From a virus (Duplodnaviria > Caudoviricetes): a stretch of DNA of 52,015 bases. Of the stretch, positions 1,407 to 51,817 are shown piece by piece. The position numbers were made by a program, and so were the translations under genes. A model generated the notes under the pieces. The model did no database searches, had not been told where the DNA came from, and saw only the letters and a list, made by a program, of their open reading frames with translations. The stretch covers positions 1 through 52,015 of IMG/VR virus record IMGVR_UViG_3300028920_000088. One strand, given 5' to 3'. Positions within the stretch are counted from its first letter, which is position 1. The number at the start of each line of letters is the position of its first letter.

Positions 1407-4305
1407 AGATAGAATATACCTACATCAGAAGTATGAGTCCCCAAGGATGGATAGGTCGGTGCCGTACGAGCAGGTGAAGAAGGGCTCCTTAGGTAAGGTG
1501 TCAGGGGCCGACGGCAGATTCAATGGAGGGATTCGTAAGTTCTACGGGATGCGAGAAGTCCTCGATATCGACGACGTAACTAACATGGGGGGAATAGATG
1601 CCTATGACGGACCAAGCTACTTTAAGGCAGTAACGTTCCAGAAGAAGGATACGTCTACCGTGTATCGCGGCTTCGTCATTAGGTGGGATAGCCAAAATGA
1701 TAATACTGCCGAGCAGGTAGATCTTATTTATACAGCCAATAGTGGAACCTCTTGGTCGAGACACGCTATTTGGGGATGCCGATCTATAGCGTTCACGTCT
1801 GGGGGCACGACCGAAATCTCGATAGGAGATACAATTACTGGAGCTACTGGCGGGGCTACCGCGTATGTGGACTTCGTAGTATTGTCCTCCGGATCATGGG
1901 CTGGAGGAGATGCTGCCGGAACATTCTACGTTAGGAATCAATCAGGAACGTTCGAGAGTGAGAACCTAAATGTAGGAGCTTCCACGAACCTGGCTACTAT
2001 AGCTGGAGATACTACAAACAATTCGATTTCTAGTACTGCCGATATTGATTGTGCTGTGGATAGAGGGTTCCTAATAGTCGGGATAGAGGGTAGTGCGACG
2101 AAGACTACGTATTGGAATGGCTCCTCTATAGTTACTGTGTCCAGTGGTCCGGGAGACTTTGATACAGAGCTTACGGCTCCAACCCTGAATACATCCTCCG
2201 TAAATACTAGCTACCAACTGAAGGGTAATGGGACCTACCAAGTAGCATACCGATTTTACGACTCTACTCGTGGAATATACAGTGCGTTAAGTGCACCTCT
2301 TACGATACATCTGGATCGCATGAAGACGACATATGCTACTGGCACTATTACATTCAATAGCGGGGGAGATAACTCCGGCCTAATGCAGTCTGGTGATATC
2401 TTTACAATCAATAGTAGGACCTACGAGTATATATCTGACTCCGGGTCGGACGTGATTATTAGTGCAGCATCAGCTGCTGATATAGAATCACACGCTGAGG
2501 CATTGGCAGATGCAATCAATGGGGACAGCTCAGCTGAGGTGACAGCTACAGCCCAAGCAACGTCGGTGCTTATTACTGCCTCCACTAGGGGATCAGACGC
2601 TAACTCGTATGGATTGGTAGTAACTGTAGGGGGAAATGACTTCTCTGCATCAGGGAGCACCCTTTCTGGGGGCGGAGATGCTACATCGGAGCCAGAAGAT
2701 CAGTGTCGAGCTACGATTGACTTCCCTGCAAATACAGCGGTAGTGTCTGGGGAGGCTTACTCGGACTTTGCCGCCTTGTTCGATACAGTAGATATTTTCC
2801 GGACTGTGAATTTGGGAGAGACAGTATCGACGCAGGGAGCCATCTTCTATCTGGAAAGTACGATTGCTAAAACGGGAAATTGGGCTACGTCAGGAACGTG
2901 GGACTCCCTTACAGCATACATAGGTTCCAAGGTTGATGACGCATTGCCGTTCCAAATCATGTACGATCCGGAAAAGGATATTATACAGACGCCTCCGCAG
3001 AGTGGAACCATTGGTAGGTACGGCAGGCTAACCTTCATGGCTCAAGCGTCCAGCGTCGATGGGGGATACGATACCCTACATAGTAGTTACGAGCATACGA
3101 GTCCGGAATACTTCAGCACCTACAATAAGAGGAGAGGAGACCCGGAGGACGGTAGGCCTCTCAGATTTATCAGGGCTGGGGTCAGCCTGTTCCAACTATG
3201 TTATAACTCTATCGTGCATATATTTAAGTCGGGAGATACGAAGCCGCTTCAGTATACGAGGCTACATGAGAAGCGTGGTATCGTAGGGAAGGGAGCCGCC
3301 CACTCAAGCGGAAATAGTATATTCATGGTTAGTGGATTGGGGGTAGCAGCCCTGAATGCTACTGATGGAAGTATGGGGGGTATTTCAGCGGCGGACCGAG
3401 TAATCTTTGACGATTGGAAGTCCTATTTGTCTGAGATTGAATCATGCTACGACGCCCTGATGAATTGCAGCTTCTTTCTGTGTCCTTCACTCAGGCAAAT
3501 ACTATGCTTGTGGCACTCTAGCAGGACGGTATCTTTCCTGGAGGGGGCAAACTTCGTGGGGGCCTCCGGCGGACCCAACGTTAGTGGGACAAATGACAGG
3601 GCGTTCTTCATAACGGCTACTGGCCTGATTGTTTCCCCCGACGTACTGGAGGCAGGGAGCGGTACGATGTGGGACCTAGCTAGTACATATACCTTGGACA
3701 GTACGGTTACTACCGGGGGAACAACATTGACGGATACGGAGGCTACCTTCCATGCCGACATGGTTGGGGCGAGACTTTACATTACGAATGGGACAAACGC
3801 AGGATACGACAGAGAAATAGCTAGTGTGAACACCAGTACGAAGGTACTGACGTTTACTGAAAATTTCCCCTACGATATAGGGGCTACTGACCGATACAGT
3901 ATTAGTCCTGTCCCCTTTATCGTCCGTACTTGGCCGCTGGCACAAGAGGAATTGTCCCCCTTCGTGAGACGTATACTGATGGGGGTGGCTGTGAAGGCCA
4001 GCGATCAGTCTGGATTTGAGGAAAATACCAATAAGTACTGGAGGGTCTCGGCGTATCGGGACAGGGAGCCTACACCTGAGCAACAGATGGTTTATATATC
4101 GATGGATTATGGGCCTGGCGTTTCCTGCGGAGGCCTTAATATAGATGGGGTGAATGTTACTCCTTACATTGAGCAGATATCTACTGGAACTATGTTTGAA
4201 TTAACTGACGCCGAATTCGCCATGACTCCAACTGACAGCAGGATGACCGGGGACGAGTACGCATACGGAGATGGTGACTACGGATCGGGAAGGTACGGTT
4301 ACTAA
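1399..4305 (+). CDS. Large tail structural protein (tail nozzle/stabilisation protein-like, with inserted beta-rich domains)
   Basis: 968 aa, beta-rich T/S/G composition, YQVAYRFYD motif. Sits upstream of the tailspike and putative ejection proteins, as in podoviruses. Confidence 0.55.
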   Translation: MAEDRIYLHQKYESPRMDRSVPYEQVKKGSLGKVSGADGRFNGGIRKFYGMREVLDIDDVTNMGGIDAYDGPSYFKAVTFQKKDTSTVYRGFVIRWDSQNDNTAEQVDLIYTANSGTSWSRHAIWGCRSIAFTSGGTTEISIGDTITGATGGATAYVDFVVLSSGSWAGGDAAGTFYVRNQSGTFESENLNVGASTNLATIAGDTTNNSISSTADIDCAVDRGFLIVGIEGSATKTTYWNGSSIVTVSSGPGDFDTELTAPTLNTSSVNTSYQLKGNGTYQVAYRFYDSTRGIYSALSAPLTIHLDRMKTTYATGTITFNSGGDNSGLMQSGDIFTINSRTYEYISDSGSDVIISAASAADIESHAEALADAINGDSSAEVTATAQATSVLITASTRGSDANSYGLVVTVGGNDFSASGSTLSGGGDATSEPEDQCRATIDFPANTAVVSGEAYSDFAALFDTVDIFRTVNLGETVSTQGAIFYLESTIAKTGNWATSGTWDSLTAYIGSKVDDALPFQIMYDPEKDIIQTPPQSGTIGRYGRLTFMAQASSVDGGYDTLHSSYEHTSPEYFSTYNKRRGDPEDGRPLRFIRAGVSLFQLCYNSIVHIFKSGDTKPLQYTRLHEKRGIVGKGAAHSSGNSIFMVSGLGVAALNATDGSMGGISAADRVIFDDWKSYLSEIESCYDALMNCSFFLCPSLRQILCLWHSSRTVSFLEGANFVGASGGPNVSGTNDRAFFITATGLIVSPDVLEAGSGTMWDLASTYTLDSTVTTGGTTLTDTEATFHADMVGARLYITNGTNAGYDREIASVNTSTKVLTFTENFPYDIGATDRYSISPVPFIVRTWPLAQEELSPFVRRILMGVAVKASDQSGFEENTNKYWRVSAYRDREPTPEQQMVYISMDYGPGVSCGGLNIDGVNVTPYIEQISTGTMFELTDAEFAMTPTDSRMTGDEYAYGDGDYGSGRYGY

Positions 4306-5790: not shown

Positions 5791-6963
5791 ATGGCAATGG
5801 AAATGGATTATACTAAGTTTCTGAAGGCCGATGCAACTGGTGGGGACCCGTTCAACTACGAGGCGTTCCGGAAAACGATAGGTGATTTGGCTAGTCAGAC
5901 TCGTGAGGTTAGTGGAACGGAAGGATACCAAGCGGCAGTCCCCCTTTATGAGTCGATCAAATCTAGTGGATGGTCTCCAGGATCGTCGGGCTCCCTATCT
6001 TCGTATCTTAGTTCAGGGTCTAAAGTTGCGGCAAAAGCCCAAGCTGAAGCTGGAATGGCTAAGGCAAGAGGGGATATCCAATCGTTGCAGGGGCAAGCAG
6101 ACAAGGCCTCCGCAGGACTCGAAGTTATGGGAGCTGGAATGGAGGCCTACATGAAGAGGCTTCAGTCGGCCCAGGACTTCGCCGCTACATCCTATCAGTC
6201 TGCCGCCGAGGGTTGGGGGGCCGCTGCGGAGAAAGCAGACGAGTACGTGCAGGCGTCGAGGGCCCGAGTAGCAGAAGTCCTAAGCACGTTAGATGAAACA
6301 CATCAACAGATTGGTAGGGATCGGGACTTCGCTCGTGCACATGCCATGCAGGCTGGGGTACAGGCTACGCTAGGGTCCATGAAGGCCGAAGAGCGTAATA
6401 TCCTACAGAATTATGGTGCTGACTCTGCTGAGTATAACCAGTTCGTCCAAAGTAAAGGGACTGCCTTGGCTACGATGGCCAGTAATATCCATACGAACTA
6501 CCAGCAGTTGGCGGAGACGGCTAGTGTCCAACATATGATGGCCACCAACGAGGCTATGTGGAAGCAGAATATGTATACTAGCTTTCAGGAGCAGCAGCAT
6601 GTCGAGATGCTAAAGTTCCTGGAGTCCTCGAAGTACCAGTATGCTATGGAGAAAGCCAAATTCGATGTGGAAGTTGAACAACTACGGATGGCTGGTATGG
6701 AAAATGTTGCTAGCTGGTTTTATAATACACCTAACTTCATGTATGATGCTATGCCTATAGTTGACGTACTGGCCGAGGTAGCTAACTCGATGAGTGTTAA
6801 TCGGCAGCTCGCAAATATGATGTCGAGTCAGCGGGGCGGATTCAGTATTAGTCCTCTATACTCATCTGCATCTAGTATTCCAGCCCCGTCTTCTAGTACA
6901 CCAACAAGCAAAAAATCCTCCGTAAAACCCGATGGAAAGGCTTCTGAAAGAGTCTCAAGCTAG
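5791..6963 (+). CDS. Putative internal virion (ejection) protein
   Basis: 390 aa, A/Q/M-rich and predicted helical. Position after the tail genes is typical of podovirus DNA-ejection proteins. Confidence 0.5.
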   Translation: MAMEMDYTKFLKADATGGDPFNYEAFRKTIGDLASQTREVSGTEGYQAAVPLYESIKSSGWSPGSSGSLSSYLSSGSKVAAKAQAEAGMAKARGDIQSLQGQADKASAGLEVMGAGMEAYMKRLQSAQDFAATSYQSAAEGWGAAAEKADEYVQASRARVAEVLSTLDETHQQIGRDRDFARAHAMQAGVQATLGSMKAEERNILQNYGADSAEYNQFVQSKGTALATMASNIHTNYQQLAETASVQHMMATNEAMWKQNMYTSFQEQQHVEMLKFLESSKYQYAMEKAKFDVEVEQLRMAGMENVASWFYNTPNFMYDAMPIVDVLAEVANSMSVNRQLANMMSSQRGGFSISPLYSSASSIPAPSSSTPTSKKSSVKPDGKASERVSS

Positions 6964-8696: not shown

Positions 8697-9359
8697 ATGG
8701 CTAAACTACCAACTAAGCATAATGCCGAGACAATGGAATGGTTCGTCAGAGCTATAACGGAAGGTCGCTCGGGCGGGAAGCCGAAGGACATGAAGAACTT
8801 CTTTCCTGGGATGGGGGCTGTTGATAAATCGGTCGGAAAGGTTCCGAGCGTGGAGGCTTCCAAGGCTAAGAGGCTACAGAAGATGCTGGCCGAGGGGAAG
8901 TTTAATCCTTCCGCAGCTAAGGCCTCCGCAGGGAAGGAGGCAGCTAAGAAGGCGGCTAGGTCCGGAGGCAAGTTCACTAAAGCAGCCGGAGAAACTATTA
9001 GCAAGACAGATGACATGACTTGGTTGGGGAAGTTCTTTGGTAAGGGCGGGGGGATGTCAAAAGTCGGCAAGTTCATGTCCGGCAAATCTGGAGTAGCCCT
9101 CGACGCAGTCCTATTCGGACTGTACCTGATGAACATGCAAGAGAAGCTGATGGAGTCTGGGTTCGCTCGCCAAGCTGAGGAGAACGTGATAGAATCACGG
9201 GAGGATGTTCTTACTCCACAGCACTTCTATCTACAGTCGGCGTTGCCCGAGGCACAGGAGCGGGAGCGTGGATTGCGACAAGCTGTCGTAGGCAGACTAG
9301 CTACAGGCGGAGTTCTCGGACCTTCACTGGCACGCGGCGAAACCATGATAGGGAGCTAA
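8697..9359 (+). CDS. Hypothetical virion-associated protein
   Basis: 220 aa, G/K/A-rich, with SD GAGAGG; in the ejection-protein cluster. Confidence 0.5.
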   Translation: MAKLPTKHNAETMEWFVRAITEGRSGGKPKDMKNFFPGMGAVDKSVGKVPSVEASKAKRLQKMLAEGKFNPSAAKASAGKEAAKKAARSGGKFTKAAGETISKTDDMTWLGKFFGKGGGMSKVGKFMSGKSGVALDAVLFGLYLMNMQEKLMESGFARQAEENVIESREDVLTPQHFYLQSALPEAQERERGLRQAVVGRLATGGVLGPSLARGETMIGS

Positions 9360-9360: not shown

Positions 9361-12300
9361 TTGGACATCTTGGACAGATACGATCCTGAGACGGACGTTC
9401 CCCGCTATGGGCTGGGAAGCATAGAGTTCCCTACTACAGTATATGATCGAGGTTCCTTGGCATTCTCCAATGTCTTGAGGGGGGACCTCGACGCTGCCAG
9501 TAGGTCCATACTATCTCCACAGGACCTCTCCCCTGCGGAGGCCCAAACGCTGACCAACAAGCTGCTGGGGGACAACCCTAATCCATTGCTAAAGACGCTG
9601 GTCGATGTGGCTACTAATCCACTGGTGGTGGCAGGGTTACTGGCAGGGGTAGTGTTTTGGCCGCTGGGTACGACTGCTCCTCTTACCATGCTGGCTAAGG
9701 GGTTGGGGCCGAAGGCCAAACATATAGGCAGGCTCATGCGGTATCCTAGTGGTGCCATGTCCTACATGAAGGGGGTAGGTAAGACTGTTGGAAAGGAGTG
9801 GGTAGGTTTATGGGAGAAGTATTCTGCCGTACTTAAACAGCAGTCTGACTGGCTAAGCAAGTACAATCAGGGGTTGGATAAGATATACAAAGCTAACATC
9901 GCTAAGTATGGAACTAAGCTGACCCCCGACGATGTGAGGGTAGCTGGTATGATTGCCGACACGGAACGAGGGGGTGTCAACCTGGTAGGTAGGGCCTTTG
10001 ATGTAACTAAGGCTGGTCCTCGTAATCCAGAGATGTATAACTATTTCAAGGGGTTGGGACTCAAGAAGGGGGACTCCTTTACGAAGGTTTTCAAGAATCA
10101 CCCGAAGTACAAGCAGCTAAAGGAGCTGGCTGATAACGTACGTAGATTACAGGATAAACAATGGAGTTACTTACCTAAGGACAAGAAGACCTTGCTACAG
10201 TTGAGACAGAGAGCTGGAGCTAAGGGTGAAGTGAGTCTGTTCCAGCCGGGGTATGGACTGCCCCACTACGCAACGATGGATAGGTATACACATAGGTCTC
10301 TATTCCAGCGTATGAACAAGAAGAACTTCTCGGCGTGGGCCACAGAAGCTAAGGAGAAGATGGCTAAGGTATTCTATCAGGATAAAGCCCAATCCATCAT
10401 AGACCCTGACGCCCTACTGGCTGCTGAAAGAGGGGGATGGTTGCCAGCTGGTGCTGCTAAGGCGGTACGGGCTGACTACGCTAGGGCCTCCGCAGAGGCG
10501 ACGCAGCAGGTGGCTAAGATATGGGAGCGAGCTATCACTAAGGGGGGAAATAAGGAGCAGGTAGTCAAGAAGTTCATTGACGACACGATCACGTGGTTCA
10601 AAGGGAGTGGCAAGACTACCTCGTTGGGTGCGAGGCTTAGTTCAGGGATTACACCGGAGACCGCGAAGGCTACCGCCGACAAGCTACGGATTGCTAACAA
10701 GAAGTTGATGGGGGACATGCTGGGGGAGATGGGCAACCAGTTGTATAAGGCTGGCAATCCCGTCGCACTACAGAACGAGTTGGAGGCTATAGGCAGGGTG
10801 ATTGGGTCACCGGCTCGGTATGATACACATCTACTTAAAGCGGCACAACGATACACACATAACATATCACAGGCAGTGCCATGGTATCATAAGAATGTAG
10901 CATTGAGGTCGGGGGAAGGACTGGACGATTTCGTAAGGGAAGTAGTTCTTGATCCTCCTGCGTGGGCGGAGAAGCCACCGGCCTTCCTGAAGAACCTGAT
11001 GGAGGAGACGCTGATCCCACAGCTCAAGGGGTACAAGACATGGCAGCAGGGGCAAAGGTCCCTAACTATATTTGAGACGAACCGTAAGTCGTATGACTTC
11101 GTGACCAAGAACCCCATGATGAAGGGCATAGCTCCGGAGGGGTCGGCATTAGGGGATTGGTTGCGAGCTACGTTCGGAGGAGGCCCCAAGTCACTGACTG
11201 CTGAGGGGGTAGAGCATGGTATCTCTAGCTGGATATATACATCGGCACTGGGAGCAAACGTGTCCCCCATATCCAAGAACTCGCTACAGACGTTGGCTAC
11301 CGTCATCAACATGCCAGGCATGGGGCCCTCCTCTATAGTTAGGGGGATCAAGGAGCTGAATCCCAGACTGTGGGGCGGCATGGCTCACATGTGGGACGAT
11401 GCTGCTGGTAAGATGGTTAAGGTAAAGGTAGACGGGGTCCTTCCCAACTGGATCAAGGGGATCAAGGAGGCCAAGCACCCTATTACTGGCGAGATAGTGT
11501 CTAACATGCAGGCTAACTTCCCTGAGTTCGTAGCCCACTTCGGAGAAGGGGAAGGAATGGTTGCTGCCATAGAGGCTGGTGACATGGGCATGGACATGAT
11601 GGGGGCTTCTTCCCTAGCCAAGAGCGGGCTAAAGAAGATGCAGGAGAAGCTGCTGTATGGGTTCGAGAAGTCCGAGATGTTCAACAGGCTCCTTGGTTTC
11701 TATGCAGGACAGCAACAGCATCTGCATCATTTGAAGGGCAGTATTGGTAAGGGCATGTCGGCTGCAAAGAAGATAGAACAAGCCAATACTGTGGGAGCTA
11801 ACGTGGTGCATGCCGGTCACTTCACGGGCGGACCACTCGGGACCCCGTCGGCTACGCTCAACTGGTCTGCCCCCCTGCGTCAGTTTACACACTTCCCACT
11901 CAGGATGGTAGACTTCCTTGGTGCCTCTACTCGATGGGGACTCGACCCATCCAAGTTGAACTTCGGCACCATTGGCAGGACGGCTGCCACGGCTGGAATC
12001 ACATACGAGGTAGGTAAGAACCTATTGGGGGTTGATCTTTCGCAGGCGATTGGGTCCGGCACGATTCCCGCACCCGCCTACGAGGGGGCCCCCTTCTATC
12101 CGTTCCCATTGGTATCTCCATTGGTCAGTGCTGTTGGGTCAGCTGCTGCCGCCCTGTACGAGGGGGACATGGAGAAGCTCGGGGCTACAGCTGCATTGGC
12201 TGTGCCTGGTGGACTGGCTGGCCGAAGACTCTACAAGACGCTGGCTCCCAAGTATGCTGACTACCAGAACAGAACTCCGGATGGACGTATCCCTGTATAC

Positions 12301-12732
12301 AACGATGACCATGCCCTGATAGGTACGTATACTCCAATGCAGATGGTGATGCGGGCGATGGGTATCAAGGTAATGAACCAGTCTGAAGAGCAGGGAGCCA
12401 TGAAATGGTTGCTGTCGCAGCGAGATAAACTTCGTGAATACAGGCGAGAATACCTTCAGGCACTCTTCAAAAACGACTACTCCCGTGCGGAGGCCATACA
12501 GAAAGAGTATCAGGAGCAGTACCCTGAGCTGGGTCCGTTACAGGTGAAGAAGACAGACATCACAGCCCTGAAGAACCGAAGGAATGTAAGCAGAATCAAT
12601 AGGGTCTTGAAAGGATTCCCGAAGGAAGCTCGTCCTGTATTCCAGCAAGTGCTGGGGGACGCCGCGTTGCGTACCATGTACCAGGATGTGGAGACGAACC
12701 CCGCCTCATTTGACATCTACTTCCCACAGTAG
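9361..12732 (+). CDS. Large internal virion (ejection) protein
   Basis: 1123 aa, TTG start right after the upstream stop. Helical and G/A/K-rich; last gene of the structural block, in a T7 gp16/P22 gp16-like position. Confidence 0.55.
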   Translation: MDILDRYDPETDVPRYGLGSIEFPTTVYDRGSLAFSNVLRGDLDAASRSILSPQDLSPAEAQTLTNKLLGDNPNPLLKTLVDVATNPLVVAGLLAGVVFWPLGTTAPLTMLAKGLGPKAKHIGRLMRYPSGAMSYMKGVGKTVGKEWVGLWEKYSAVLKQQSDWLSKYNQGLDKIYKANIAKYGTKLTPDDVRVAGMIADTERGGVNLVGRAFDVTKAGPRNPEMYNYFKGLGLKKGDSFTKVFKNHPKYKQLKELADNVRRLQDKQWSYLPKDKKTLLQLRQRAGAKGEVSLFQPGYGLPHYATMDRYTHRSLFQRMNKKNFSAWATEAKEKMAKVFYQDKAQSIIDPDALLAAERGGWLPAGAAKAVRADYARASAEATQQVAKIWERAITKGGNKEQVVKKFIDDTITWFKGSGKTTSLGARLSSGITPETAKATADKLRIANKKLMGDMLGEMGNQLYKAGNPVALQNELEAIGRVIGSPARYDTHLLKAAQRYTHNISQAVPWYHKNVALRSGEGLDDFVREVVLDPPAWAEKPPAFLKNLMEETLIPQLKGYKTWQQGQRSLTIFETNRKSYDFVTKNPMMKGIAPEGSALGDWLRATFGGGPKSLTAEGVEHGISSWIYTSALGANVSPISKNSLQTLATVINMPGMGPSSIVRGIKELNPRLWGGMAHMWDDAAGKMVKVKVDGVLPNWIKGIKEAKHPITGEIVSNMQANFPEFVAHFGEGEGMVAAIEAGDMGMDMMGASSLAKSGLKKMQEKLLYGFEKSEMFNRLLGFYAGQQQHLHHLKGSIGKGMSAAKKIEQANTVGANVVHAGHFTGGPLGTPSATLNWSAPLRQFTHFPLRMVDFLGASTRWGLDPSKLNFGTIGRTAATAGITYEVGKNLLGVDLSQAIGSGTIPAPAYEGAPFYPFPLVSPLVSAVGSAAAALYEGDMEKLGATAALAVPGGLAGRRLYKTLAPKYADYQNRTPDGRIPVYNDDHALIGTYTPMQMVMRAMGIKVMNQSEEQGAMKWLLSQRDKLREYRREYLQALFKNDYSRAEAIQKEYQEQYPELGPLQVKKTDITALKNRRNVSRINRVLKGFPKEARPVFQQVLGDAALRTMYQDVETNPASFDIYFPQ

Positions 12733-17415: not shown

Positions 17416-17463
17416 ATAATTATGGGAAGGCAAAGAAGTTAGCCCATTTAATTTGGCCTCCGC

Positions 17464-17511
17464 AGGGATGGGGGTGTGTAGTGGACTCCACTACCGCCCC
17501 TGCCCGTTTTT
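17464..17511 (+). terminator. Stem-loop with T-tract (terminator/attenuator-like)
   Basis: GTAGTGG-act-CCACTAC inner stem, extended by G-rich/C-rich arms and followed by TTTTT. Overlaps the end of a GGCCTCCGCAGG motif. Confidence 0.45.
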
Positions 17512-27999: not shown

Positions 28000-28060
28000 C
28001 TATAGGGCCTCCGCAGGGATAGACTTGCCGGGTAGTTCCCGGTCCTGCGGAGGCCTATAG
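28000..28060. repeat. Inverted-repeat hairpin between the Ubl and E2 genes, built from two copies of the dispersed motif
   Basis: CTATAG-GGCCTCCGCAGG...CCTGCGGAGGCC-TATAG, with an inner CCGGG/CCCGG stem. Confidence 0.8.
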
Positions 28061-35826: not shown

Positions 35827-36065
35827 TTGTGATTGATTGAGGAAAGACCTCACAAGTTCTAATTCCATTTCCCTATATTTCCTTGACACCACACTTATGT
35901 TTCACCAAGTGGAATTTCATGTATCATAAAGGAGGATAAAGACTTACTAGACTTTTTAGACTTTTTAGACTTAATAAATTTAATGGTCCTTTCTTCGCAC
36001 GCGGGGGCTCTTCGGTACCCATGCCGGGGGGCCCCAATCTTTCCGATTTTCCTGCGGAGGCCTAA

Positions 36066-39155: not shown

Positions 39156-39605
39156 ATGGGGCCGAAGAAATCAAAAATATGCACTAAGTGTGGGATAAAG
39201 AAGTACCGTCGTGATTTTGGCAAGCGAAAAGCAGCTAAAGATGGCCTTCGGCCCCAATGCAAAGAGTGTGACAAGAAATACAGGATAGCATACTGGAAAG
39301 CCCATCCCAATAGGCTAAAATCAAAAGACTATAAATCTAACAGAGAAAGTCGTTGGAGGAAATGGGGATTGACCTTTACATTAGAAGATTATAATACAAT
39401 GTTCGAGGCCCAAGGCGGTAAGTGTGCTATTTGTGGGATACATCAGAATACTCTATCGAAGAGACTGTGTGTAGATCATTGCCACGAGTCATTGGAAGTT
39501 AGAGGGCTGCTATGTACCAAATGCAATACGGCGATTGCTAGGTTTGAAAATGATATAATTTGGTTAGATAAGGCTATGGACTATTTGGGGAGGGGTAATG
39601 AGTAA
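39156..39605 (+). CDS. Endonuclease VII-like (HNH) protein
   Basis: QGGKCAICG...LCVDHCH...VRGLLCTKCNTAI with an N-terminal CTKC/CKEC finger. Confidence 0.88.
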   Translation: MGPKKSKICTKCGIKKYRRDFGKRKAAKDGLRPQCKECDKKYRIAYWKAHPNRLKSKDYKSNRESRWRKWGLTFTLEDYNTMFEAQGGKCAICGIHQNTLSKRLCVDHCHESLEVRGLLCTKCNTAIARFENDIIWLDKAMDYLGRGNE

Positions 39606-41460
39606 CCCTAATCCATATTATCCTCTTCCAGCAGATTATGCCCAACTCTCCAGGGATGGGCAGCGGGAAGCTAGAGTTGCAACTCTTAAAGATCACGACA
39701 CCCCTGATAAGCTGGTTGAGAGATGGAATCTGTTCAGAAGATTGTATCTGTGTACAGTAGGGGAGTCTTTCTATAAAGGGGGCTATCAAGAGTCCCCCCC
39801 CTTTCATTATCAAATGGTCCGGGACTTGGCTACCTATGGTAGAAATGCTGTTGGGGCCCCCAGGGGCTCAGCCAAGTCAATGGTGATAGGCACCGAAATT
39901 CCTATGTTCTTTGCCCTTACCCGCCCCTATTACGAGATCATGTTGTGCCTGGCGACGGATAGACTGGTGGAGGAGAGGTTCGACAAGATCATTACCCAGC
40001 TGACTGAAAACCAATATATAATGGACGACTTCGGTCCTATCAAACCCACAAGGGGAAGGGCGATCTGGAATCGCCACCATCTGCATTGTGTGAATGGGGC
40101 AGTAATCAAGGGAATCAGCGTACTGGGTAAGAAGCGTGGCGGAAGACCCCAACTATTCATATTGGATGACCCTGAAAATGACCCGGATTCTGATTCGCAA
40201 GAGAGTAGCCAGATGTTACTGGAGAAATTTGAGAGAATACTGTTCAGGCAAGTTATACCGATGCTTGAGCCTGGGTCAGGTATTTTCTGGATTGGTACTC
40301 TTATCAATCGTCGCAGCTTTCTGTATCATGCTACCAGTATGGACGATTCTCGATTCAACCAGTGGAACCGTCGTGTATACAAGGCCATTACCTACGATGC
40401 AGATACGGGACCCTCGAAGGTCAAGGTTCTGTGGGAATCCAAGTGGTCAGCTGATGTGCTTGAAGCCAGAAGAGAGGAGATTGGAGACGCGGCATTCCAC
40501 GCGGAATACCTTAATGACCCCGTATCCGACACCGAACGTGTATTGGTCGTCGACCCGAGACGTAACGAGTATTTCGTCCACGACCATGAAACAATGGACA
40601 TGCTTAACCCCCTCTCGGCTACAAACGAGGTCATGTGGTTCGACAGAGTGGTCAAGAAGGGGGAGGAGACTAAGCCTACATTCGTTGAGCAGAAGGAGAG
40701 TTTTTCCAAGCTAGTCCAGCCAATGTTCCGCATAAGTACCTTCGACTACGCTCAGGGCCTCAACAAGTTCAACGACTACAGTTGTCTCGGGGTATTTGGA
40801 TTCGACCACAACAACACACTATGGATACTGGACATGTGGATGGGGCGTGCCAAAGAATCAACCCTCCTAAAAATCATCTATGAGAAGAGCAGAATATGGC
40901 AAGTCAGGATAATAGGGATAGAGACCGCAAGTGTTCAGGTGTCCTTCAAGGAGGCTGTAGACGAGTATGTACAGCAGCAGATCGATCAGACGGGGGACAG
41001 CTGGCGTGCCCATGTTTTTCCGGTGAAGTATCCGTCGAATACATCGAAGAGCCAGCGAATAGCGGGGCTAGAGTGGAGATTTCGCCCTGGCCGTATAAAG
41101 TATCCGGGACACCTCTCAAGTACGTACCCTATCAACCATCTATACAGACAGACCGCCGACTTCACCCCGGACCTCGCCCTCCTGGTAAAAGACGATGCAA
41201 TCGACACGGTTGCCATGACCCAGTATGTGATCAAGACGAAGGGCACCCGCACCAACATAGTGGAGGAAACACCTCCCCTGCGGAGGCGTCTTGCCGAGGG
41301 AGTGCCTATTGTACGGGGGATGCCGGTCCTAAGCGGGGTCTCCCCTAATCAGTTAGATGCACAGGATATTGAAATGCTTATTGACAGAAAACTAAAATCT
41401 GCTATGATAGAGAATAGTAGGGGAAGGTACGACCTGAGACGTCCACAGATAATCTACTAA
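39598..41460 (+). CDS. terL: Terminase large subunit
   Basis: Walker A APRGSAKS, Walker B FILDDPEND, IGT coupling motif, F.AEYLNDP, and RNase H-like FDYA/NDYS/DDAID. Confidence 0.9.
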   Translation: MSNPNPYYPLPADYAQLSRDGQREARVATLKDHDTPDKLVERWNLFRRLYLCTVGESFYKGGYQESPPFHYQMVRDLATYGRNAVGAPRGSAKSMVIGTEIPMFFALTRPYYEIMLCLATDRLVEERFDKIITQLTENQYIMDDFGPIKPTRGRAIWNRHHLHCVNGAVIKGISVLGKKRGGRPQLFILDDPENDPDSDSQESSQMLLEKFERILFRQVIPMLEPGSGIFWIGTLINRRSFLYHATSMDDSRFNQWNRRVYKAITYDADTGPSKVKVLWESKWSADVLEARREEIGDAAFHAEYLNDPVSDTERVLVVDPRRNEYFVHDHETMDMLNPLSATNEVMWFDRVVKKGEETKPTFVEQKESFSKLVQPMFRISTFDYAQGLNKFNDYSCLGVFGFDHNNTLWILDMWMGRAKESTLLKIIYEKSRIWQVRIIGIETASVQVSFKEAVDEYVQQQIDQTGDSWRAHVFPVKYPSNTSKSQRIAGLEWRFRPGRIKYPGHLSSTYPINHLYRQTADFTPDLALLVKDDAIDTVAMTQYVIKTKGTRTNIVEETPPLRRRLAEGVPIVRGMPVLSGVSPNQLDAQDIEMLIDRKLKSAMIENSRGRYDLRRPQIIY

Positions 41461-41775: not shown

Positions 41776-41783
41776 GGACCATT

Positions 41784-43799
41784 ATGGCATACAATCTAGT
41801 AATCCCAAAAGAGACAAAAGAAGCGGAAGCTGTCATTTCCCGACTGGTAAAGGAAGGAAAATCCCGCCGTAATCCCCAAGCCGTCCGCTGGTGGATCAAC
41901 CACTGGTATATGAGGGGGGCCCGCCACTTCAGCCAACTGGACTACAGTTCTGGTACAGTCAACATAGGATATACGGATTCCTCCGGGGTCCTGAAATTCC
42001 AGTTCGAGGGCATCATAGCTCAATACGCCAGCCAGCTAGGCAGGCTTATGGCCATTAATTTGGACCCCATCGTACGTAAAAGGGGCATCTCTCTGGATGG
42101 CCTCCGCAAGGCAGGTATAGGGCAGACCGTCCTGAATTCAGCATTCCCATCCCGTAAGGTTGAGCAGTTGAAGATGGATTTATTCCCGGCCCTCCTGATG
42201 TATGGCACAGCTGGAGTTGTTTTGTGGGTAGAGAACCAGGACTCCATGGGACTGGAAGTCGTGATGCCATGGGAGTTGGTGCCGATCCCAATCTCGATGG
42301 CTAGTCCGGCAGGCACCAGAGGCCTCATGAGACGTCGTATGGTACCGAAGGAATGGGTCAAAAAACTAGCGACAACTATCGGAGAAAGGTCAAAGAAATA
42401 TGAGGAAATGGTCTCGTATAACATACCGATTGGGGATATGCCAGATGAGACGGCTTCTCGGTTTACGTCCGACACTACAGCCCTCGGATTTTCTGCGGCC
42501 TCGAATGCGATCCGGGATACGTCCAATAAGCAGTCGTTCTCAGGGGGTCCGAAGAAGAAGGACAAGACTAAGATCGATGTGGTAGAGTTGGTCGAGGTCT
42601 GGATGCTGACCCCCGATGGTTACCTCGACGAGTACCTCGTACATGCAGGGGAAAAGCAACTGTTGCGGAACAAGATGACAAAGCCTACGCACCCGCCAAT
42701 AGCCATAGCTCGTGATACACCGGTAGGCGGATTCTGGGGTAGATCATACATTGAGACCCTTATCCCTCTTAATACGGAGATTGAGTTTGCGTTGGCTGGT
42801 ACGTTTCAGGCACTACAGGACTTTGACACTTATGGTATCACTATGTGGCCAGCCTCCGCAGGGACCCCGGCCTTAGCAGACAGGGCTTCTGACGGTCTCC
42901 GCAAAATGATATATGAGGTGGACTATACAGTACCAGACCAGAAACCCTTCAACGTGCAGCCAGCCAAGATGACTCCGTTCCACATGCAGGCGGTAGAGAT
43001 GGCTGCCACATTGAATGAGAAGATTGCAAACCAGCCCCAAGCCCTTATGCAGGGCGATGCTCCCGGACGTGTGGACTCGTCACAAGGGCTTGGGCTGCTG
43101 TTTGAGTTGTCGAGCGTGCCGCTAGCCCCTGTAGCTCGCAGCATCAGTGAGGCGGTAAGCCAAATATATAGGGCAGCCTTGGAAGTCACAAGGGATACAT
43201 GGAGTGGGTCACAGGTAGTCGATCTCAATACGCTAGACGATGGGGTGGCTGGCGTGAAGCTAGATACCGAGACCGGCACCATGAGCTTGGAGGACAACAA
43301 TATACCCCATCCTGACGAGGTGAATATAACAGTGTCTTCAGCGGTCCCAATATCGGACGAGCAGAAGAAGGCCGAACTGAAGGAGGCTTTGGCCCAACAG
43401 CGGATCACGCTTCGAGAGTACCAATTCAAGGTGAGGGAAGAGGGCCTCGATCTGCCGGTGGGTAATGAACAAGAGTGGCAAAACTACAGGCGGGCCAAGA
43501 TGGAGAATATACTTTTGTTCGGGGATGGTGAGGCCCCCGGCAAAATTATCCCGTCTGACCGTGACAACCATATGGTCCACTTGGAGGTGCTTGATGCGTT
43601 CATGGCTAAGCCGGAATTCCATCTGGCAAATCAGGCAGTCCGTAATGCCTTCGTAGAGCACCATGAGTTCCATACTGTAGGACTGGGACAACTACCTATC
43701 GGCATGGGGTCCCCTGAGGATGAGGCCGAGATGGCAGCGATGAAGCAGGGGACAATGGCTCAGATGCCCCCACAACTGCCTCCGCAGGGGATGATGTAA
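41784..43799 (+). CDS. Portal protein
   Basis: 671 aa after TerL, with FWGRSYIETLIPLN.EI, QGDAPGRVDS and D.H..HLE motifs and a Q/M/P-rich tail. Confidence 0.8.
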   Translation: MAYNLVIPKETKEAEAVISRLVKEGKSRRNPQAVRWWINHWYMRGARHFSQLDYSSGTVNIGYTDSSGVLKFQFEGIIAQYASQLGRLMAINLDPIVRKRGISLDGLRKAGIGQTVLNSAFPSRKVEQLKMDLFPALLMYGTAGVVLWVENQDSMGLEVVMPWELVPIPISMASPAGTRGLMRRRMVPKEWVKKLATTIGERSKKYEEMVSYNIPIGDMPDETASRFTSDTTALGFSAASNAIRDTSNKQSFSGGPKKKDKTKIDVVELVEVWMLTPDGYLDEYLVHAGEKQLLRNKMTKPTHPPIAIARDTPVGGFWGRSYIETLIPLNTEIEFALAGTFQALQDFDTYGITMWPASAGTPALADRASDGLRKMIYEVDYTVPDQKPFNVQPAKMTPFHMQAVEMAATLNEKIANQPQALMQGDAPGRVDSSQGLGLLFELSSVPLAPVARSISEAVSQIYRAALEVTRDTWSGSQVVDLNTLDDGVAGVKLDTETGTMSLEDNNIPHPDEVNITVSSAVPISDEQKKAELKEALAQQRITLREYQFKVREEGLDLPVGNEQEWQNYRRAKMENILLFGDGEAPGKIIPSDRDNHMVHLEVLDAFMAKPEFHLANQAVRNAFVEHHEFHTVGLGQLPIGMGSPEDEAEMAAMKQGTMAQMPPQLPPQGMM

Positions 43800-44202: not shown

Positions 44203-45095
44203 AACGCAGTATGATGCCCGAATCGTGGAAGAACGGAATCAAAGCAGCACAAACAATTGACGAACCGGATCCGGAGCCCACACCGGAACCCAAGCCCGAC
44301 CCCGAACCTAAACCCACTCCTCCTGCGGAGGCCCTAGAGGTGACCGTCAACGGGGAGAAGAAGGTGTATACGAAGGAGGAGGCTATTGAGGCCCTATCGA
44401 AGGTCAGAGGGGCTGACGCCAAGTTCAGGGAGGCTGCGGAAATCCGTAAGAAGGCCGAACGAGGCATGAGGATCGACTCCCTGTTTGCCCGGATCAAGGG
44501 CGGGGAGGCCGAGGAAGAGGAGGTGAACGAGTTGGTAGGACTTTTGGGGATTGATCCTGCTGCATTCGCAGAAGTAAGTGTGGGGCCGAATGGAACGAAG
44601 CCCGAACCGAAGCAGAAGGTAACCCTTGATGATTTGGACCCCTCCCTGAAGCAGCAGTTGCAGTTTGATGCTCAGCAGAATATTAAGAGGGCGGAGGAAC
44701 AAATTCGCAATGATGTGAAAAAAAGGGTTGACAAAGATGAGATACTTGGTAAAATGAATAGTGTAGCGGTAGAGGTAGGTAATGAGGATTTTATCGACGC
44801 CGTTACAAAGATGGTCCATGAGGATGTTCTTAGGAAGATTCGGAATGGTGAGTCGTACGGGACCGGAATGGTCGATAACTCTATTCAAGTGACTAGGGCT
44901 CGACTCAAACAATTCGGTATCCCGGACAAGGTATCCAAGCCTAAAACCTTAATTGTTGGGGCTGGGGCACCGGGTGGCGAGCCGTTGGAAATCCAACCCG
45001 ACGAGCCGGAAAAGAGAGTTGACACGAATGATGCGGGGTACTCCGACAATCTGGTAAAAAGAGTATTCCAGAGGTTACAGAAAGGGGCCTCGTAG
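44199..45095 (+). CDS. Capsid scaffolding protein
   Basis: PE-repeat N-terminus, VTVNGEKKVYT.EE motif and coiled coil; directly upstream of the major capsid gene. Confidence 0.75.
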   Translation: MKRSMMPESWKNGIKAAQTIDEPDPEPTPEPKPDPEPKPTPPAEALEVTVNGEKKVYTKEEAIEALSKVRGADAKFREAAEIRKKAERGMRIDSLFARIKGGEAEEEEVNELVGLLGIDPAAFAEVSVGPNGTKPEPKQKVTLDDLDPSLKQQLQFDAQQNIKRAEEQIRNDVKKRVDKDEILGKMNSVAVEVGNEDFIDAVTKMVHEDVLRKIRNGESYGTGMVDNSIQVTRARLKQFGIPDKVSKPKTLIVGAGAPGGEPLEIQPDEPEKRVDTNDAGYSDNLVKRVFQRLQKGAS

Positions 45096-46942: not shown

Positions 46943-47920
46943 ATGGCATCAACAAATCCAATGTTGACCTCCGACTTGATCGCCAAGTACGGATGGCAAG
47001 TAATGCCCTACCTGTCCAACCTCGGAGTCAATCTCCTTGCGGAGGCCGCTCTTCTGTTTGTCGATAGTGGAGCTACGAATGCCCTCGACGCGGACGATGG
47101 TATACATGGGCATAGTTTCCAGTATCCTTTCGCAACAGCCAACTTCGCAAATTACATGGCAACTGCCAGCCAAGGAGATGTTATTCTTCTGGCCCCAGGA
47201 CACGCTGAGACTATCAACGATGGTGGTACAGCTAGTTCCACTGCCACAGACGAACTGGTCATGGATAAAATTGGCGTGACCATGCTTGGTATCGGCACCG
47301 GCACTTTGCGACCCACGTTCACTATGGGGAGTGACGATACTACTGCAACCATCAATATTACAGCGGCCAACTGTAGGCTGTCTAACGTTCGAGTTATCTC
47401 GGGCCTGGCTGACTTGGCAATAGGTATTACGGTAGCGGCTACAGCCGACGGAACAGTTATAGACAACTGTGACATTCGAGACGGCAATGCCGCAAATAAG
47501 GAAATGGTGATCGGCATCAATGTTGCAGCCAACGCGGATGAGGTGACTATCAAGGACTGCGTGTTCGAGACAGTGGCAAGCGGTGGATGTGCTAATGCTA
47601 TCGTTCTGGCTGGTGGGTGTGACCGTGGTCAGTTGGTAGGAAACGTAGCATACGGTACGTATTCAGCCGGGACAGTTCTTGCCTCTGCGGCAGCCAGTAC
47701 CGGACTCATCATTACCGACAACATATTCGTCAACGAGGGTGCGGTAGCATTGGCACTTAATGCGTCTACTACAGGACTGGTGGCTAGGAACTTCCTTGGA
47801 GGAACCACTAGCATGGCGGCTGCCTTAACAGGTGATACAGCTGTATGGTGCTTCGAGAACTATATTTCTGGTGCTGCGGGTGCAAGTGGCGTTATCAATC
47901 CGGCTGTTGACTCTGAGTAG
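46943..47920 (+). CDS. Right-handed beta-helix virion protein (head fibre/decoration-like)
   Basis: GDVILLAPGHAETI and G.GTLRPTFT with beta-helix repeats. Confidence 0.65.
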   Translation: MASTNPMLTSDLIAKYGWQVMPYLSNLGVNLLAEAALLFVDSGATNALDADDGIHGHSFQYPFATANFANYMATASQGDVILLAPGHAETINDGGTASSTATDELVMDKIGVTMLGIGTGTLRPTFTMGSDDTTATINITAANCRLSNVRVISGLADLAIGITVAATADGTVIDNCDIRDGNAANKEMVIGINVAANADEVTIKDCVFETVASGGCANAIVLAGGCDRGQLVGNVAYGTYSAGTVLASAAASTGLIITDNIFVNEGAVALALNASTTGLVARNFLGGTTSMAAALTGDTAVWCFENYISGAAGASGVINPAVDSE

Positions 47921-49417: not shown

Positions 49418-50530
49418 ATGTCTGTAGAAACCAGACCTATGAAATGCGGACCGAATTGGCCTATCACACATTTGAATGGGAACGCTGCTAGGTCTACTAC
49501 ACTACTGAATGCCCCAGGGAGTGCCCTTAGTCATTGGATTACAGGATACGTTCTGGATGGACTGACCGACGATGACGGATTCCACCTCCTCCGCAGAAGT
49601 TGTGTCCAGTTCACAACTACCGACACCTATACAATAACAGATACAGGGACGACGTTCGATACCGGAACAGAAGCAGCCAGTGGGCACATGACAATAGAGA
49701 TGTGGGTATATGTACCTACTGCCACCGGAGCCCACGCTACGTTACTGAAGAGAGGCGACCCTGCTGCGGACGGTTGGCTACTTGAACTTACCTCAGCAGG
49801 TATTCCAAAGTTTACTATCCATGATAGTTCCGCAGCTGTTACACAGACAGCCACCCACTCTGTATTCGATAAGTGGGCCCTCATTACTGTTGTCTTTGAA
49901 CGAAACTCTACTACAGGACTGAAGATATATATTGACGGCAAAGTGGAAGCCGCCTCCGCTGGATCAGCTGATACTACGGCCTTAAATCTCACATGTGACG
50001 GTGGAACCACGATAGTATGCACTGGGGTGTCAAACAAAAAGCACTATCTCGGACCCCTTGGAATATATATTGGTTCTAGTGCTGCCCTATCTGCCGCTAC
50101 TATCCTCTCCAACTACAATGGTGGATATGGCAGAAAGTATGACGGCTCGGAGACCGGCTTGGTTGCTGGCTTCAACAACGACGAGGGTACGGGTACGGCG
50201 TGTTATAACATATTGTCCCCCACTACCGGGTTGGTTGCCCTAAGTGGTACCGAGTGGGCCCCATACAAACAGGACGGGTCTACCGCAGCAGTGACTATCA
50301 TGGGTCCCCCGTTCGAGTCTTTGGAAGAGAAGTCTATTCATTCCGACGGGGAGCAACTCCCTGCGGTAGGGAAGTTCGGCACCGGTAAGCTAAGTACTAA
50401 CGGCATCTGGAGTCCTGTCGTAGCGACGTTCCCGCAAGCTATCAAGATTGGGAGAGATAATCCTGTCCGCATCTTGGAGACCAACGGAGCGTTCACTCTC
50501 AAGCTGTTTGGATTTACTGATGGTTATTAA
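49418..50530 (+). CDS. LamG/concanavalin A-like lectin-domain virion protein
   Basis: MTIEMWVY, DKWALITVVF, LKIYIDGK, ALSAATI and LVAGFNNDEGTG are LamG-like motifs. Confidence 0.75.
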   Translation: MSVETRPMKCGPNWPITHLNGNAARSTTLLNAPGSALSHWITGYVLDGLTDDDGFHLLRRSCVQFTTTDTYTITDTGTTFDTGTEAASGHMTIEMWVYVPTATGAHATLLKRGDPAADGWLLELTSAGIPKFTIHDSSAAVTQTATHSVFDKWALITVVFERNSTTGLKIYIDGKVEAASAGSADTTALNLTCDGGTTIVCTGVSNKKHYLGPLGIYIGSSAALSAATILSNYNGGYGRKYDGSETGLVAGFNNDEGTGTACYNILSPTTGLVALSGTEWAPYKQDGSTAAVTIMGPPFESLEEKSIHSDGEQLPAVGKFGTGKLSTNGIWSPVVATFPQAIKIGRDNPVRILETNGAFTLKLFGFTDGY

Positions 50531-50533: not shown

Positions 50534-51403
50534 ATGGACCTAGGCGTACGTGAAATCTTGAAAACTGGCAAGGAGCTGATGGCTCCGACGAACCAGTATA
50601 TGCGGGACGAGTCCAACAAGATGATACGGGGCGGGAAATACTTCCTGCCCTACGCTTTATCGAAGGCAATCGCTCCTACCGCATGGGTAATCCCAGGCGT
50701 GACAGCCAAAGAGATTAATAAGAAATTGGATAGGGACTTCGCGGACAAGGTGGGGGGATTTGGTAAGCCCCTCGCCAACGTCTCTGCGGAGGCCCTGGTG
50801 TCTGCCACTATAGGAAAAGGGCTGCGTATGAAGAAGCCTACTGTTACTACGAAGGCCCGTAAGATGGCTGGTATGAAATTGTCTGCCGGTCTGAACAAGG
50901 GGGCGGCCTCCGCAGGAAGTGCTATGGATAAGGCCCACTCGAATTTCTTGCTTAGGGCGGAGAAGGGTATATCGATGAGTGACTTGGTTGAGAAGGAGAT
51001 TGCTAAGGGCACTCCCGTAGGAACCGTTCAGAAATGGTACAGACAGGCGATGCAACTTAGAGAGGAGGCCGCCAAGATAGCAGCATACCAATCGAAACTA
51101 TCCTCCGGGGCTAAGGCGACTGGCAGTGCAGCAGAGGGGGTTACTAAGTATAAAAAGTTACCGTCGGATAGTCTTAGGTTTGCTTGGAAGGCCGCCAATA
51201 AAAGGTATGCTGAAGTTGCAGCTAAGGCTATGGGTCTCAAACCAGAAGAGCTTGAGGTTATGCACAAGGCGACGAAAGGTTACGATATCGGCAACGTGCC
51301 CGCTAGGAAAGGAGCCGAGGCTGTTTCAAAATTTATGGCAGACTCTCGTTGGCAAGTGGAGGCGAATAGGTGGTTAGACACGATACTAGGTATGAAAAAT
51401 TAA
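50534..51403 (+). CDS. Hypothetical basic A/K-rich protein
   Basis: 289 aa ORF in the structural block. Confidence 0.55.
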   Translation: MDLGVREILKTGKELMAPTNQYMRDESNKMIRGGKYFLPYALSKAIAPTAWVIPGVTAKEINKKLDRDFADKVGGFGKPLANVSAEALVSATIGKGLRMKKPTVTTKARKMAGMKLSAGLNKGAASAGSAMDKAHSNFLLRAEKGISMSDLVEKEIAKGTPVGTVQKWYRQAMQLREEAAKIAAYQSKLSSGAKATGSAAEGVTKYKKLPSDSLRFAWKAANKRYAEVAAKAMGLKPEELEVMHKATKGYDIGNVPARKGAEAVSKFMADSRWQVEANRWLDTILGMKN

Positions 51404-51418: not shown

Positions 51419-51817
51419 ATGTTCGGAGACGCATATCCCTATCGCGAAGGGGAGATTAAGATACTGCCTGAGAACGATACGTTGAAAGGCATGAAAGAGC
51501 GAGTGAAGGGAAAGGAGCCTTTGCTCGCTAAAAATTTGTTCTGGTATTACCATCCGAAGCACGATAACTATGTGATAGCAGAGTGGATCGGACGACCAAA
51601 GCTCTACTATATCGACAAGATTAATTTGGGGCCCAAAGGTATTCAGGGGCTGACACGGGAGAAGTACGATACTTTCCTGCGGAGGTCCCTTGAGCCTATG
51701 ACGGCACAGGAAGTCATGCAAATGCAGGTTGAAGAGGAATATAAATTTCACGTAATGTTACAAGAACATCAGGCCGAGGAGAGAGAGCGGCTAGAGAAGA
51801 GAGCTAGAGGAGAATAA
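51419..51817 (+). CDS. Hypothetical protein
   Basis: 132 aa with SD GGAAGGAAAG. Confidence 0.6.
   Translation: MFGDAYPYREGEIKILPENDTLKGMKERVKGKEPLLAKNLFWYYHPKHDNYVIAEWIGRPKLYYIDKINLGPKGIQGLTREKYDTFLRRSLEPMTAQEVMQMQVEEEYKFHVMLQEHQAEERERLEKRARGE

Follow-up and report, generated by a model that had tools for sequence, protein, structure and literature searches.

What does a phage gain by writing one short word into both strands of its genome, straight through its genes, and what reads that word? The question is raised by IMG/VR virus record IMGVR_UViG_3300028920_000088, a Caudoviricetes genome of 52,015 bp that was analysed over its whole length and is called the window below. The record is estimated to be 96% complete, is without end repeats and carries approximately 66 called genes, all on the + strand and together covering 92.7% of its length; through these genes runs the word GGCCTCCGCAGG, at a density of approximately one copy per 3 kb on each strand and one per 1.5 kb overall. 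Here we show that it is a lineage-specific DNA word, under selection as DNA and placed in genes through synonymous changes, that each strand holds its own evenly spaced set of copies with orientation alternating beyond chance, and that the same tiling rule, in spellings that shift along the terminase tree, extends across a clade of uncultured phages. The even tiling of each strand, the alternation of orientation and the clade-wide dialects are new relative to an earlier note on this DNA, which had drawn attention to the repeated word from the letters alone.

A selected DNA word tiled along both strands

The earlier note had counted at least 24 exact copies of the 10-mer CCTCCGCAGG between positions 4124 and 51685, 12 in each orientation, and every one of them was recovered at its coordinates; the chance expectation that it gave, about 0.1 copies, was reproduced by 100 dinucleotide-preserving shuffles (mean 0.10, largest 1, versus 24 observed). 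The 12-mer GGCCTCCGCAGG occurs 18 times exactly (nine on each strand) and a further 12 times with one mismatch, compared with no exact and no one-mismatch copies for the reversed-pattern control. The best-defined form is the core CCTCCGCA, the commonest 8-mer of the genome, which is present in 33 copies (17 on the + strand and 16 on the − strand) and thereby adds nine sites to the 24, close to the eight or so near-matches reported before. Alignment of the 33 sites on this core gave the consensus W-N-GGCCTCCGCAGG-R, worth approximately 22 bits: upstream of the core, G occupies −2 in 26 sites and −1 in 30, with a weak A/T preference at −4; downstream, G stands at +1 in 30 sites and G or A at +2 in all 33; and the position right after GGCCTCCGCAGG (+3) is a purine in 33/33 sites, as is +4 in 26/33. 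The 33 aligned sites do not form a palindrome, and the G+C content of the word is 83%. No further similarity was found in the flanks of the copies, and the word is therefore a stand-alone unit and not a piece of a longer repeat. Folding of 80-nt single-strand windows gave −8.7 kcal/mol at the sites and −6.3 kcal/mol at random positions, a difference confounded by the 83% G+C of the word.

The exact 12-mers on the + strand lie at 6105..6116, 8921..8932 and 23780..23791 (all three read as KASAG), 14897..14908 (PASAG), 21429..21440 (SASAG), 50905..50916 (AASAG), 17455..17466, 28006..28017 and 34600..34611; those on the − strand lie at 9532..9543, 18800..18811, 37769..37780 (within the zinc-ribbon gene described below) and 44322..44333 (all four read as PAEA), 15582..15593 (LRR), 4124..4135, 25778..25789, 28044..28055 and 36051..36062. 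Exact copies of the 10-mer alone were found on the + strand at 13153..13164 (AGCC..), 42851..42862 and 43777..43788, and on the − strand at 32901..32912, 41277..41288 (in TerL) and 51676..51687 (LRR). One mismatch is carried by the + copies at 10485..10496 (..CAGA), 31243..31254 (RASAE) and 42099..42110 (in the portal gene) and by the − copies at 12484..12495 (..CACG), 24121..24132 and 50783..50794 (both SAEA) and 47036..47047 (LAEA), and two + copies, at 2990..3001 (gcCCTCCGCAga) and 49586..49597 (ctCCTCCGCAga), keep only the core.

Six of the 33 copies lie between gene calls (25778, 28006, 28044, 32901, 34600 and 36051), while intergenic DNA makes up 8.3% of the genome (binomial P = 0.05). 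The earlier note listed all of these but 32901 as intergenic, and the copy that it placed at 17457 is intergenic only if the neighbouring gene starts at 17528. The GGAGG of the copy at 25778 lies 8 nt before a GTG at 25796, and the copies at 28006..28017 and 28044..28055 are the left and right arms, 26 nt apart, of the only close convergent pair; another opposed pair is approximately 110 nt apart. Long genes contain two to three copies, which rules out a rule of one site per gene. That the word is read in varied frames was likewise correct. The frames do vary, and their usage on each strand is uneven: the 15 coding + sites encode ASA(G/E) ten times, PPQ three times and LR(K/R) twice, and the 12 coding − sites encode xAEA eight times, LRR three times and CGG once, a pattern expected if the word is placed wherever a tolerated peptide permits it.

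Selection on the DNA itself, rather than on the encoded proteins, was evaluated by permuting synonymous codons within each gene 300 times, which keeps both the amino acids and the codon usage. The 10-mer has 18 coding copies versus 0.48 in the shuffled genes (s.d. 0.69, maximum 4), the 8-mer core has 27 versus 2.47 and the 12-mer has 13 versus 0.16. The word at alignable sites is, moreover, made of synonymous changes only, as seen in an aligned 4 kb from relatives that are approximately 72% identical to the window in DNA. At 42851, the window and the relative L134 both encode PASAGT with five nucleotide differences within the word, all synonymous; at 42099 both encode GLRK in differing codons; and in the reverse case a word of L134/L136 sits where the window has VSSAVP in other codons. 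No site in this aligned 4 kb is shared by position between the window and the relatives, and the copy in TerL at 41277 has no counterpart at the same place in L134/L136. The sites are not conserved in position and emerge through clustered synonymous changes; an origin by insertion of a 12-nt unit was rejected, the alignments showing substitutions instead. Because the codon shuffle removes the enrichment and aligned sites differ synonymously, the suggestion in the earlier note that selection acts on a signal in the DNA, and that protein sequence does not drive the word, is borne out, and the same follows from a word that is tiled straight through genes and for which relatives have their own spellings. 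An assembly or adapter artefact, which would have undone that suggestion, was looked for and not found, as the copies lie in frame in genes and related words occur in the contigs of other assemblies. Logan contigs of sequencing run X1 match 27001–36530 with 0 differences, which provides a second assembly and not second data, since that run may be the source sample.

The spacing of the copies is more even than random placement allows. For all sites together the coefficient of variation (CV) of spacing is 0.59 versus 0.95 for random sites, with none of 5,000 random placements as low; the − set alone has a CV of 0.40 (again 0/5,000) and the + set 0.57 (P = 0.017). Orientation switches between neighbouring sites in 23 of 32 cases (P = 0.016). 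These tests were extended to a pool of the window and eight relatives, from which palindromic double counts had been removed: orientation switches 78 times in 116 versus 61.6 expected (P ~0.001), 14 of the 15 per-strand sets have a CV below the null mean, and none of 2,000 simulations reaches the pooled CV sum, likewise when the window is excluded. The tiling spans early, replication and structural genes alike, with 3,508 bp as the largest gap, and both orientations are balanced and interleaved genome-wide. As descriptive means, convergent neighbours (+ then −) lie 981 bp apart (n = 12) and divergent neighbours 1,702 bp apart (n = 11).

From this geometry we infer that the reader of the word can tell one strand, or one direction, from the other, acts genome-wide in both directions and passes down with the phage lineage. 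With transcription in a single direction and the signal in both, the process served would be DNA metabolism and not gene expression. A promoter reading is excluded by the balanced orientation, and a search for sigma-70-like promoters over 25–37.5 kb gave 20 against 21.3 expected; a signal at the RNA level was likewise rejected, half of the copies being antisense to every transcript. Repressor sites of the stoperator type, one of the options in the earlier note, fail on orientation. The stoperators of Cluster A mycobacteriophages, to which the immunity repressor of these temperate phages binds, resemble the present sites in being more than 20 asymmetric 13-mers over a genome of approximately 50 kb, in spellings that are akin among related phages, but they occupy short gaps between genes and are oriented along transcription, and reversal abolishes their function (PMC9283540), whereas 27 of the 33 sites in the window are coding and 16 of 33 run against the sole direction of transcription. 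Polar words such as KOPS and SRS, which are skewed to one strand along a replichore, also differ from a word whose orientations are balanced and interleaved.

Dialects across a clade of uncultured phages

Relatives were found by a TerL profile search, which gave 80 metagenome loci and four viral contigs, and were read as partial stretches (at most half of each metagenome record). Relatives at 34–82% TerL identity carry a dispersed word on both strands, in the related spellings CCTCTGCAG, GCCCCGCAGG, GTCCCCTGTAG, CCCCGACAG and GTGGTCCCAGG, with nine to 16 fixed positions per phage word. The dialect of L134–L137 is YCCTCCGCAGR, that of L139 is AACCTCCGCAGR (13–15 copies in 19.5 kb), that of L141 and L140 is RGCCCCGCAGG (13–15 in 21.8 kb of L141), that of L145 is MCCTCTGCAGR (14–16 in 20 kb) and that of L162 is GCCTCTGCAGR. 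L152 and L011 carry GTGTCCCCTGTAG, L159 carries MCCCCGACAGA (20–23 in 21 kb), L167 carries CCCCCGACAGR, L153 and L154 carry GTGGTCCCAGGT and L138 carries CCGTGGTTCCAGAT; further words are GGACCCCGGAAGGGTT in L157 (seven copies), AAGGTCCCGGACG in L149 (four), AACCTGTCCAAC in L143 (four) and ACCTTCAACACCG in L160 (six). No clear word was seen in the stretches of L151 and L165.

In a TerL tree, which leaves out L162 with its partial TerL, the words track the branches. The form CCTCCGCAG is common to the window, L134, L135 and L139; the sisters L140/L141 and L145 are one position off; and a second TerL clade holds the GTCCCCTGTAG and GTGGTYCC groups. The words of the nearer subclade end in YAG followed by a purine, an ending that is not kept in deeper branches. 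Control loci from distant phages (12 loci of at least 8 kb, TerL identity 21–26%) showed nothing similar; the 9-mers that ranked highest in them were confined to one strand, reflected composition or stood in tandem, mostly with three to five copies. The word is a real, strongly selected and clade-wide cis-signal whose geometry is unusual and well supported. The literature searches made for this analysis found no published description of such strand tiling, and the word as a text string retrieved only primers and unrelated sequences among the matches listed.

Two side observations concern individual relatives. At 1751–2098 of L160, nine tandem copies of AACCTTACCA adjoin genes for a D5-like helicase and a DnaA-C-like HTH protein, an arrangement resembling an iteron origin, and this iteron has its first five letters in common with the dispersed word ACCTTCAACACCG of the same phage. 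Genes for DNA methyltransferases, among them a C5 cytosine methylase, lie upstream of the terminase gene at 3262–5338 of L139 and at 7387–7929 of L157.

Gene content, host search and a candidate reader

The structural and packaging block of the window runs from the TerL gene (39598) to the end of the record and continues from 75 to approximately 12.7 kb, and it includes a pectate-lyase-type tail fibre and long internal proteins rich in Ala, Gly and Met. The only polymerase found is a family A DNA polymerase (PolA; 12843..15479, + strand) with an N-terminal family-4 UDG-like domain at residues ~50–185. An endonuclease VII with an N-terminal zinc ribbon (39156..39605, + strand) adjoins the terminase gene and is a possible nuclease partner. 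An ATPase at 22220–23413 carries the Walker A motif GPPGSGKT, and a protein atlas puts it near viral SF3-type helicases, which is taken as a lead only. Other DNA-metabolism genes encode an ERCC4 nuclease, a PD-(D/E)XK exonuclease, Sak4 and a protein with a weak SSB-like match, and further genes encode MazG, an HD phosphatase and a metallophosphatase. Two adjacent paralogues of approximately 207 aa (15442–16678), whose sole recognisable part is sigma-70 region 4, follow the polymerase. No tRNA gene and no cluster of motif-like iterons that could serve as a candidate origin was found in the window; scans with the general PHROGs, Pfam and NCBIfam libraries revealed no integrase, other lysogeny gene or named repressor, and library scans of the window revealed no DNA methyltransferase.

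The phage is distant from cultured ones. TerL and PolA are 21–27% identical to phage records (among 50,697), megablast of 20 kb against the same 50,697 records gave no match, neither a 538-aa capsid candidate nor the ATPase matched any phage record by tblastn, and IMG/VR protein searches with PolA and the capsid candidate yielded no relatives. Of the words sampled from a 10-kb stretch, 97% are present in one run labelled as a marine sediment metagenome. When run X1 was compared with 27001–47000, many contigs were 80–99% identical (252 placed, 79 at ≥99% and 74 at <90%), and therefore several related strains or phages coexist in the sample.

Some features of the window stand apart from the word. 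A ubiquitin-like conjugation gene set at 27718–31495 comprises a ThiS-like gene (27718–27984), a 453-aa protein with seven C-terminal CxxC pairs (28081–29442), a 288-aa protein whose Cap3/JAB-like match is faint (E = 0.01), and a ThiF/E1-like gene (30374–31495), with homologues in the same order in L162 at 27–39% identity. An AT-rich tandem of four AATTTTTTTG units lies at 12765–12805, between the last structural gene and PolA, and an inverted copy of it (31 nt, 94% complementary) lies 13 kb away at 25870–25900; these inverted copies bracket the DNA-metabolism genes and may be an origin, a promoter or a boundary element. In the 31–39 kb region there are six short arrays of 8–9-nt units with three to five copies each (31484–31535, 32067–32104, 34421–34453, 35940–35973, 38205–38233 and 38868–38898), two of them inside the gene directly upstream of the terminase genes (38179–38925); pac sites often lie just upstream of terminase genes. 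A small gene at 26091–26281 contains 6.4 copies of a 30-nt unit in frame, giving a peptide repeat rich in W and E.

A cellular source of the word was sought in 406 genomes (five plus 401 of one phylum), approximately 0.2% of the species in the genome collection. None of the 406 was enriched for the 11-mer GCCTCCGCAGG, the maximum of 24 copies being similar to that of the reversed control. The convergent-pair pattern had no match in viral contigs, and a scan of species genomes for it returned, among at least 120 matches listed, only isolated GC-rich hairpins and a hairpin repeat of Calothrix/Tolypothrix. This repeat (GCCTGCCTCCGCAGGCT...) was rejected as a host signal, having other flanks and just two arm copies per 4 kb. 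As a side observation, the Calothrix/Tolypothrix-type genomes L045, L059, L066, L085, L020, L030, L074, L080 and L025 contain a long hairpin element, present repeatedly, of the form ..AAAGCCTGCCTCCGCAGGCT-loop-AGCCTGCGGAGGCAGGCTTT.. with the 10-mer in both arms and flanks unrelated to those of the phage word. A host reader is not supported by these searches; a word of approximately 22 bits would be costly for a chromosome to keep unless driven by DNA uptake.

Within the phage, the candidate reader is a 283-aa protein with tandem zinc ribbons (37019..37870, + strand), which has two CxxC...CxxC modules and no nuclease domain. The earlier note had listed it among possible binders. A protein of the same type lies 2–3.4 kb upstream of TerL in 10 of the 20 clade sequences in which at least 3.4 kb upstream of TerL could be read, which adds some weight to it as a putative binder. 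The carriers are the window, L138, L141, L143, L145, L149, L153, L154, L156 and L162; it was not seen in the corresponding stretches of L139, L147, L148, L152, L157, L159, L160, L164, L165 and L167. The module, with the pattern CxxC...[FY][FY]...CxxC and one or two per protein, is of the type found at the N-terminus of EndoVII/HNH homing nucleases. The protein has diverged beyond the range of tblastn, while TerL identity is 45–57%, and neither a search of PDB sequences nor a relaxed scan with Pfam was informative for it. The families of replicative helicases are mosaic across the clade, with AAA_25 in L139, L157 and L159, D5-like in L147 and L160 and the type of the window in L152.

Possible functions of the word

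What step of DNA metabolism would use such a word? We favour, tentatively, the possibility that phage DNA synthesis starts at the words, on each template strand. In one variant, a primase or replisome loader that has escaped recognition would begin a strand on the purine that follows the word on its 3′ side; in another, a nick in one strand at the word would give a strand-displacing PolA its 3′-OH. The Sak4 annealase, the PD-(D/E)XK exonuclease, the ERCC4 nuclease and endonuclease VII would then process displaced strands and branches, and a long private word would confine synthesis to phage DNA. This proposal draws on the strand rule, on the kilobase spacing and, by analogy, on NrS-1, whose primase-polymerase starts synthesis beside an 8-nt template word and not on it (PMC8718748). 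Like the phage word, the NrS-1 word (5′-TTTGGTTA-3′) is strand-specific and at least 8 nt long, and the purine that follows the word in 33/33 sites here is as expected for initiating nucleotides. The predicted gene content, with PolA, the exonuclease, Sak4, ERCC4, EndoVII, the weak SSB-like match and the SF3-like ATPase, would fit recombination-linked, strand-displacing replication. We also counted in favour of start sites that the word tracks TerL and that no cellular genome among the 406 sampled is enriched.

Several observations weigh against this proposal. Unlike NrS-1, the phage genome has no detected primase or primase-polymerase, and the word is common to relatives with different helicases. 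Scans of the open reading frames with PHROGs, Pfam and NCBIfam found no primase, although a very diverged enzyme could escape them, and six-frame searches for Prim-Pol (PF09250), Toprim_2 (PF13155) and DNA_primase_S (PF01896) found none. L139 has the core word of the window and yet a different helicase family (AAA_25), and this, together with the helicase mosaic, argues against a reader tied to a helicase/primase module. Bidirectional forks from a fixed origin would need a single orientation on each side, and orientations here are mixed everywhere; priming from nicks would, at 28006–28055, require nicks in opposite strands within 26 nt of each other; and the purine rule may be part of a binding site.

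Two rivals remain live. In the first, which we consider unlikely, the word acts as Chi does: a helicase-nuclease or exonuclease that sets out from a DNA end would read it on one strand and change over from degradation to recombination, the enzyme being either a host machine of the RecBCD/AddAB type or the phage PD-(D/E)XK exonuclease with Sak4. Known Chi words are 5–8 nt long, G-rich, set by the host and abundant in its chromosome, where their strand skew goes with replication, at a density on the scale of ~1 per 3 kb per strand in E. coli, and in lambda Chi mutations arise by point changes. The phage word is alike in a strand- and direction-dependent reading, in its kilobase density, in a complement strand that is G-rich (CTGCGGAGG, CTGCAGAGG, CTACAGGGG and CTGTCGGGG in the different dialects) and in the point-mutation origin of new copies from near-matches; the orientation dependence is indirect here, seen as non-random orientation and even spacing on each strand. 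Such a function would explain the strand rule as well as start sites do, because even tiling of both strands would limit the loss from a break in either direction. The phage also has a full recombination toolkit, library scans returned no Gam-like inhibitor by name, and a word that tracks the structural-gene tree could equally reflect related hosts. The word differs from Chi, however, in being longer (nine to 16 fixed positions, ~22 bits in the window), so that a host chromosome would hardly keep it at a useful density; it also varies along the phage tree and is enriched in none of the sampled genomes. To our knowledge, two-component phage recombinases do not use Chi, which we counted against this explanation.

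In the second live rival, on the improbable side, the copies are binding sites of a phage double-stranded DNA binder from the late module, most likely the zinc-ribbon protein at 37019–37870, which would help to package, condense or protect the DNA or would act as a polar roadblock. The presence of a same-module protein upstream of TerL in 10 of 20 sequences speaks for it, as does a divergence beyond the reach of tblastn, as would suit a protein that co-evolves with the changing word; an asymmetric site of 12–13 bp would match two modules; the module type is shared with EndoVII, HNH and LAGLIDADG homing nucleases (scores ~0.91), as a lead only; and the word tracks the structural and packaging tree whereas helicase types are mosaic. 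Against this, the protein is unseen in the other 10 of 20, including L139 with the core word of the window, though it may lie outside the stretches read, and simple binding to the duplex leaves the even spacing of each strand unexplained unless the bound protein acts directionally.

Covalent marks on virion DNA are very unlikely, whether as nicks made constitutively at defined sites, known from T5, phiKMV-like phages and tf, or as bases modified in a given sequence. Nicking sites had been among the options in the earlier note. The localized nick motifs of T5/BF23, phiKMV-like phages and Pseudomonas phage tf are 7–19 nt long, occur in 4–14 copies and differ between related phages, and co-evolution of site and enzyme has been proposed for them (PMC3517423); like the phage word, they are a short consensus repeated along the genome. 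Nucleases of the EndoVII/HNH type with the same zinc module lie by the terminase gene, and L139 and L157 encode DNA methyltransferases. The known nick sites are all on one strand and unevenly placed (PMC3517423), in contrast to the 17 + and 16 − copies, evenly spaced, of the window. Opposed sites 26 nt and approximately 110 nt apart would, moreover, risk breaks, and the window scans found no methyltransferase.

Least probable of all, and by our estimate hardly to be expected, is a host-driven word of the uptake (DUS of Neisseriaceae, USS of Pasteurellaceae) or HIP1 type, copied by drive or by a shared mutation or repair bias, which the earlier note had also offered: a length of ~12 nt, balanced orientation, dialects, frame bias, even spacing and one intergenic inverted pair do recall DUS/USS, but orientation is non-random and alternates in the pooled set, which would not be expected from a duplex receptor blind to orientation, the word is carried by a phage that looks lytic, with no integrase or lysogeny gene in the general scans, none of the 406 sampled genomes is enriched, the pair scan gave only unrelated hairpins among its listed matches, and the HIP1 octamer GCGATCGC, which is palindromic and occurs at ~1 per kb where it is used, has 0 copies in the window, where the word is non-palindromic. 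Uptake sequences proper belong to the chromosomes of competent hosts, where they are present in hundreds to thousands of copies and are read regardless of orientation. The probability that remains is assigned to something outside the explanations listed here.

Whichever step is served, the strand-tiling words may, as a cautious suggestion, represent a previously undescribed class of phage cis-signal, in which a private word of 10–16 nt on each strand every few kilobases is read by a fast-evolving phage-encoded protein, perhaps the tandem zinc-ribbon protein, and marks the phage's own DNA for replication, recombination or packaging. At approximately 33 sites, many of them in essential genes, selection rewrites synonymous codons and rebuilds sites elsewhere as old ones decay, and a basic DNA-handling step of these phages relies on a private, strand-specific address that is absent from current annotation. 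If the words are indeed starts of synthesis or a private Chi, they would give a phage a way to tell its own DNA from that of the host without base modification; they may also act as lineage markers for binning and for linking the contigs of one phage group in metagenomes.

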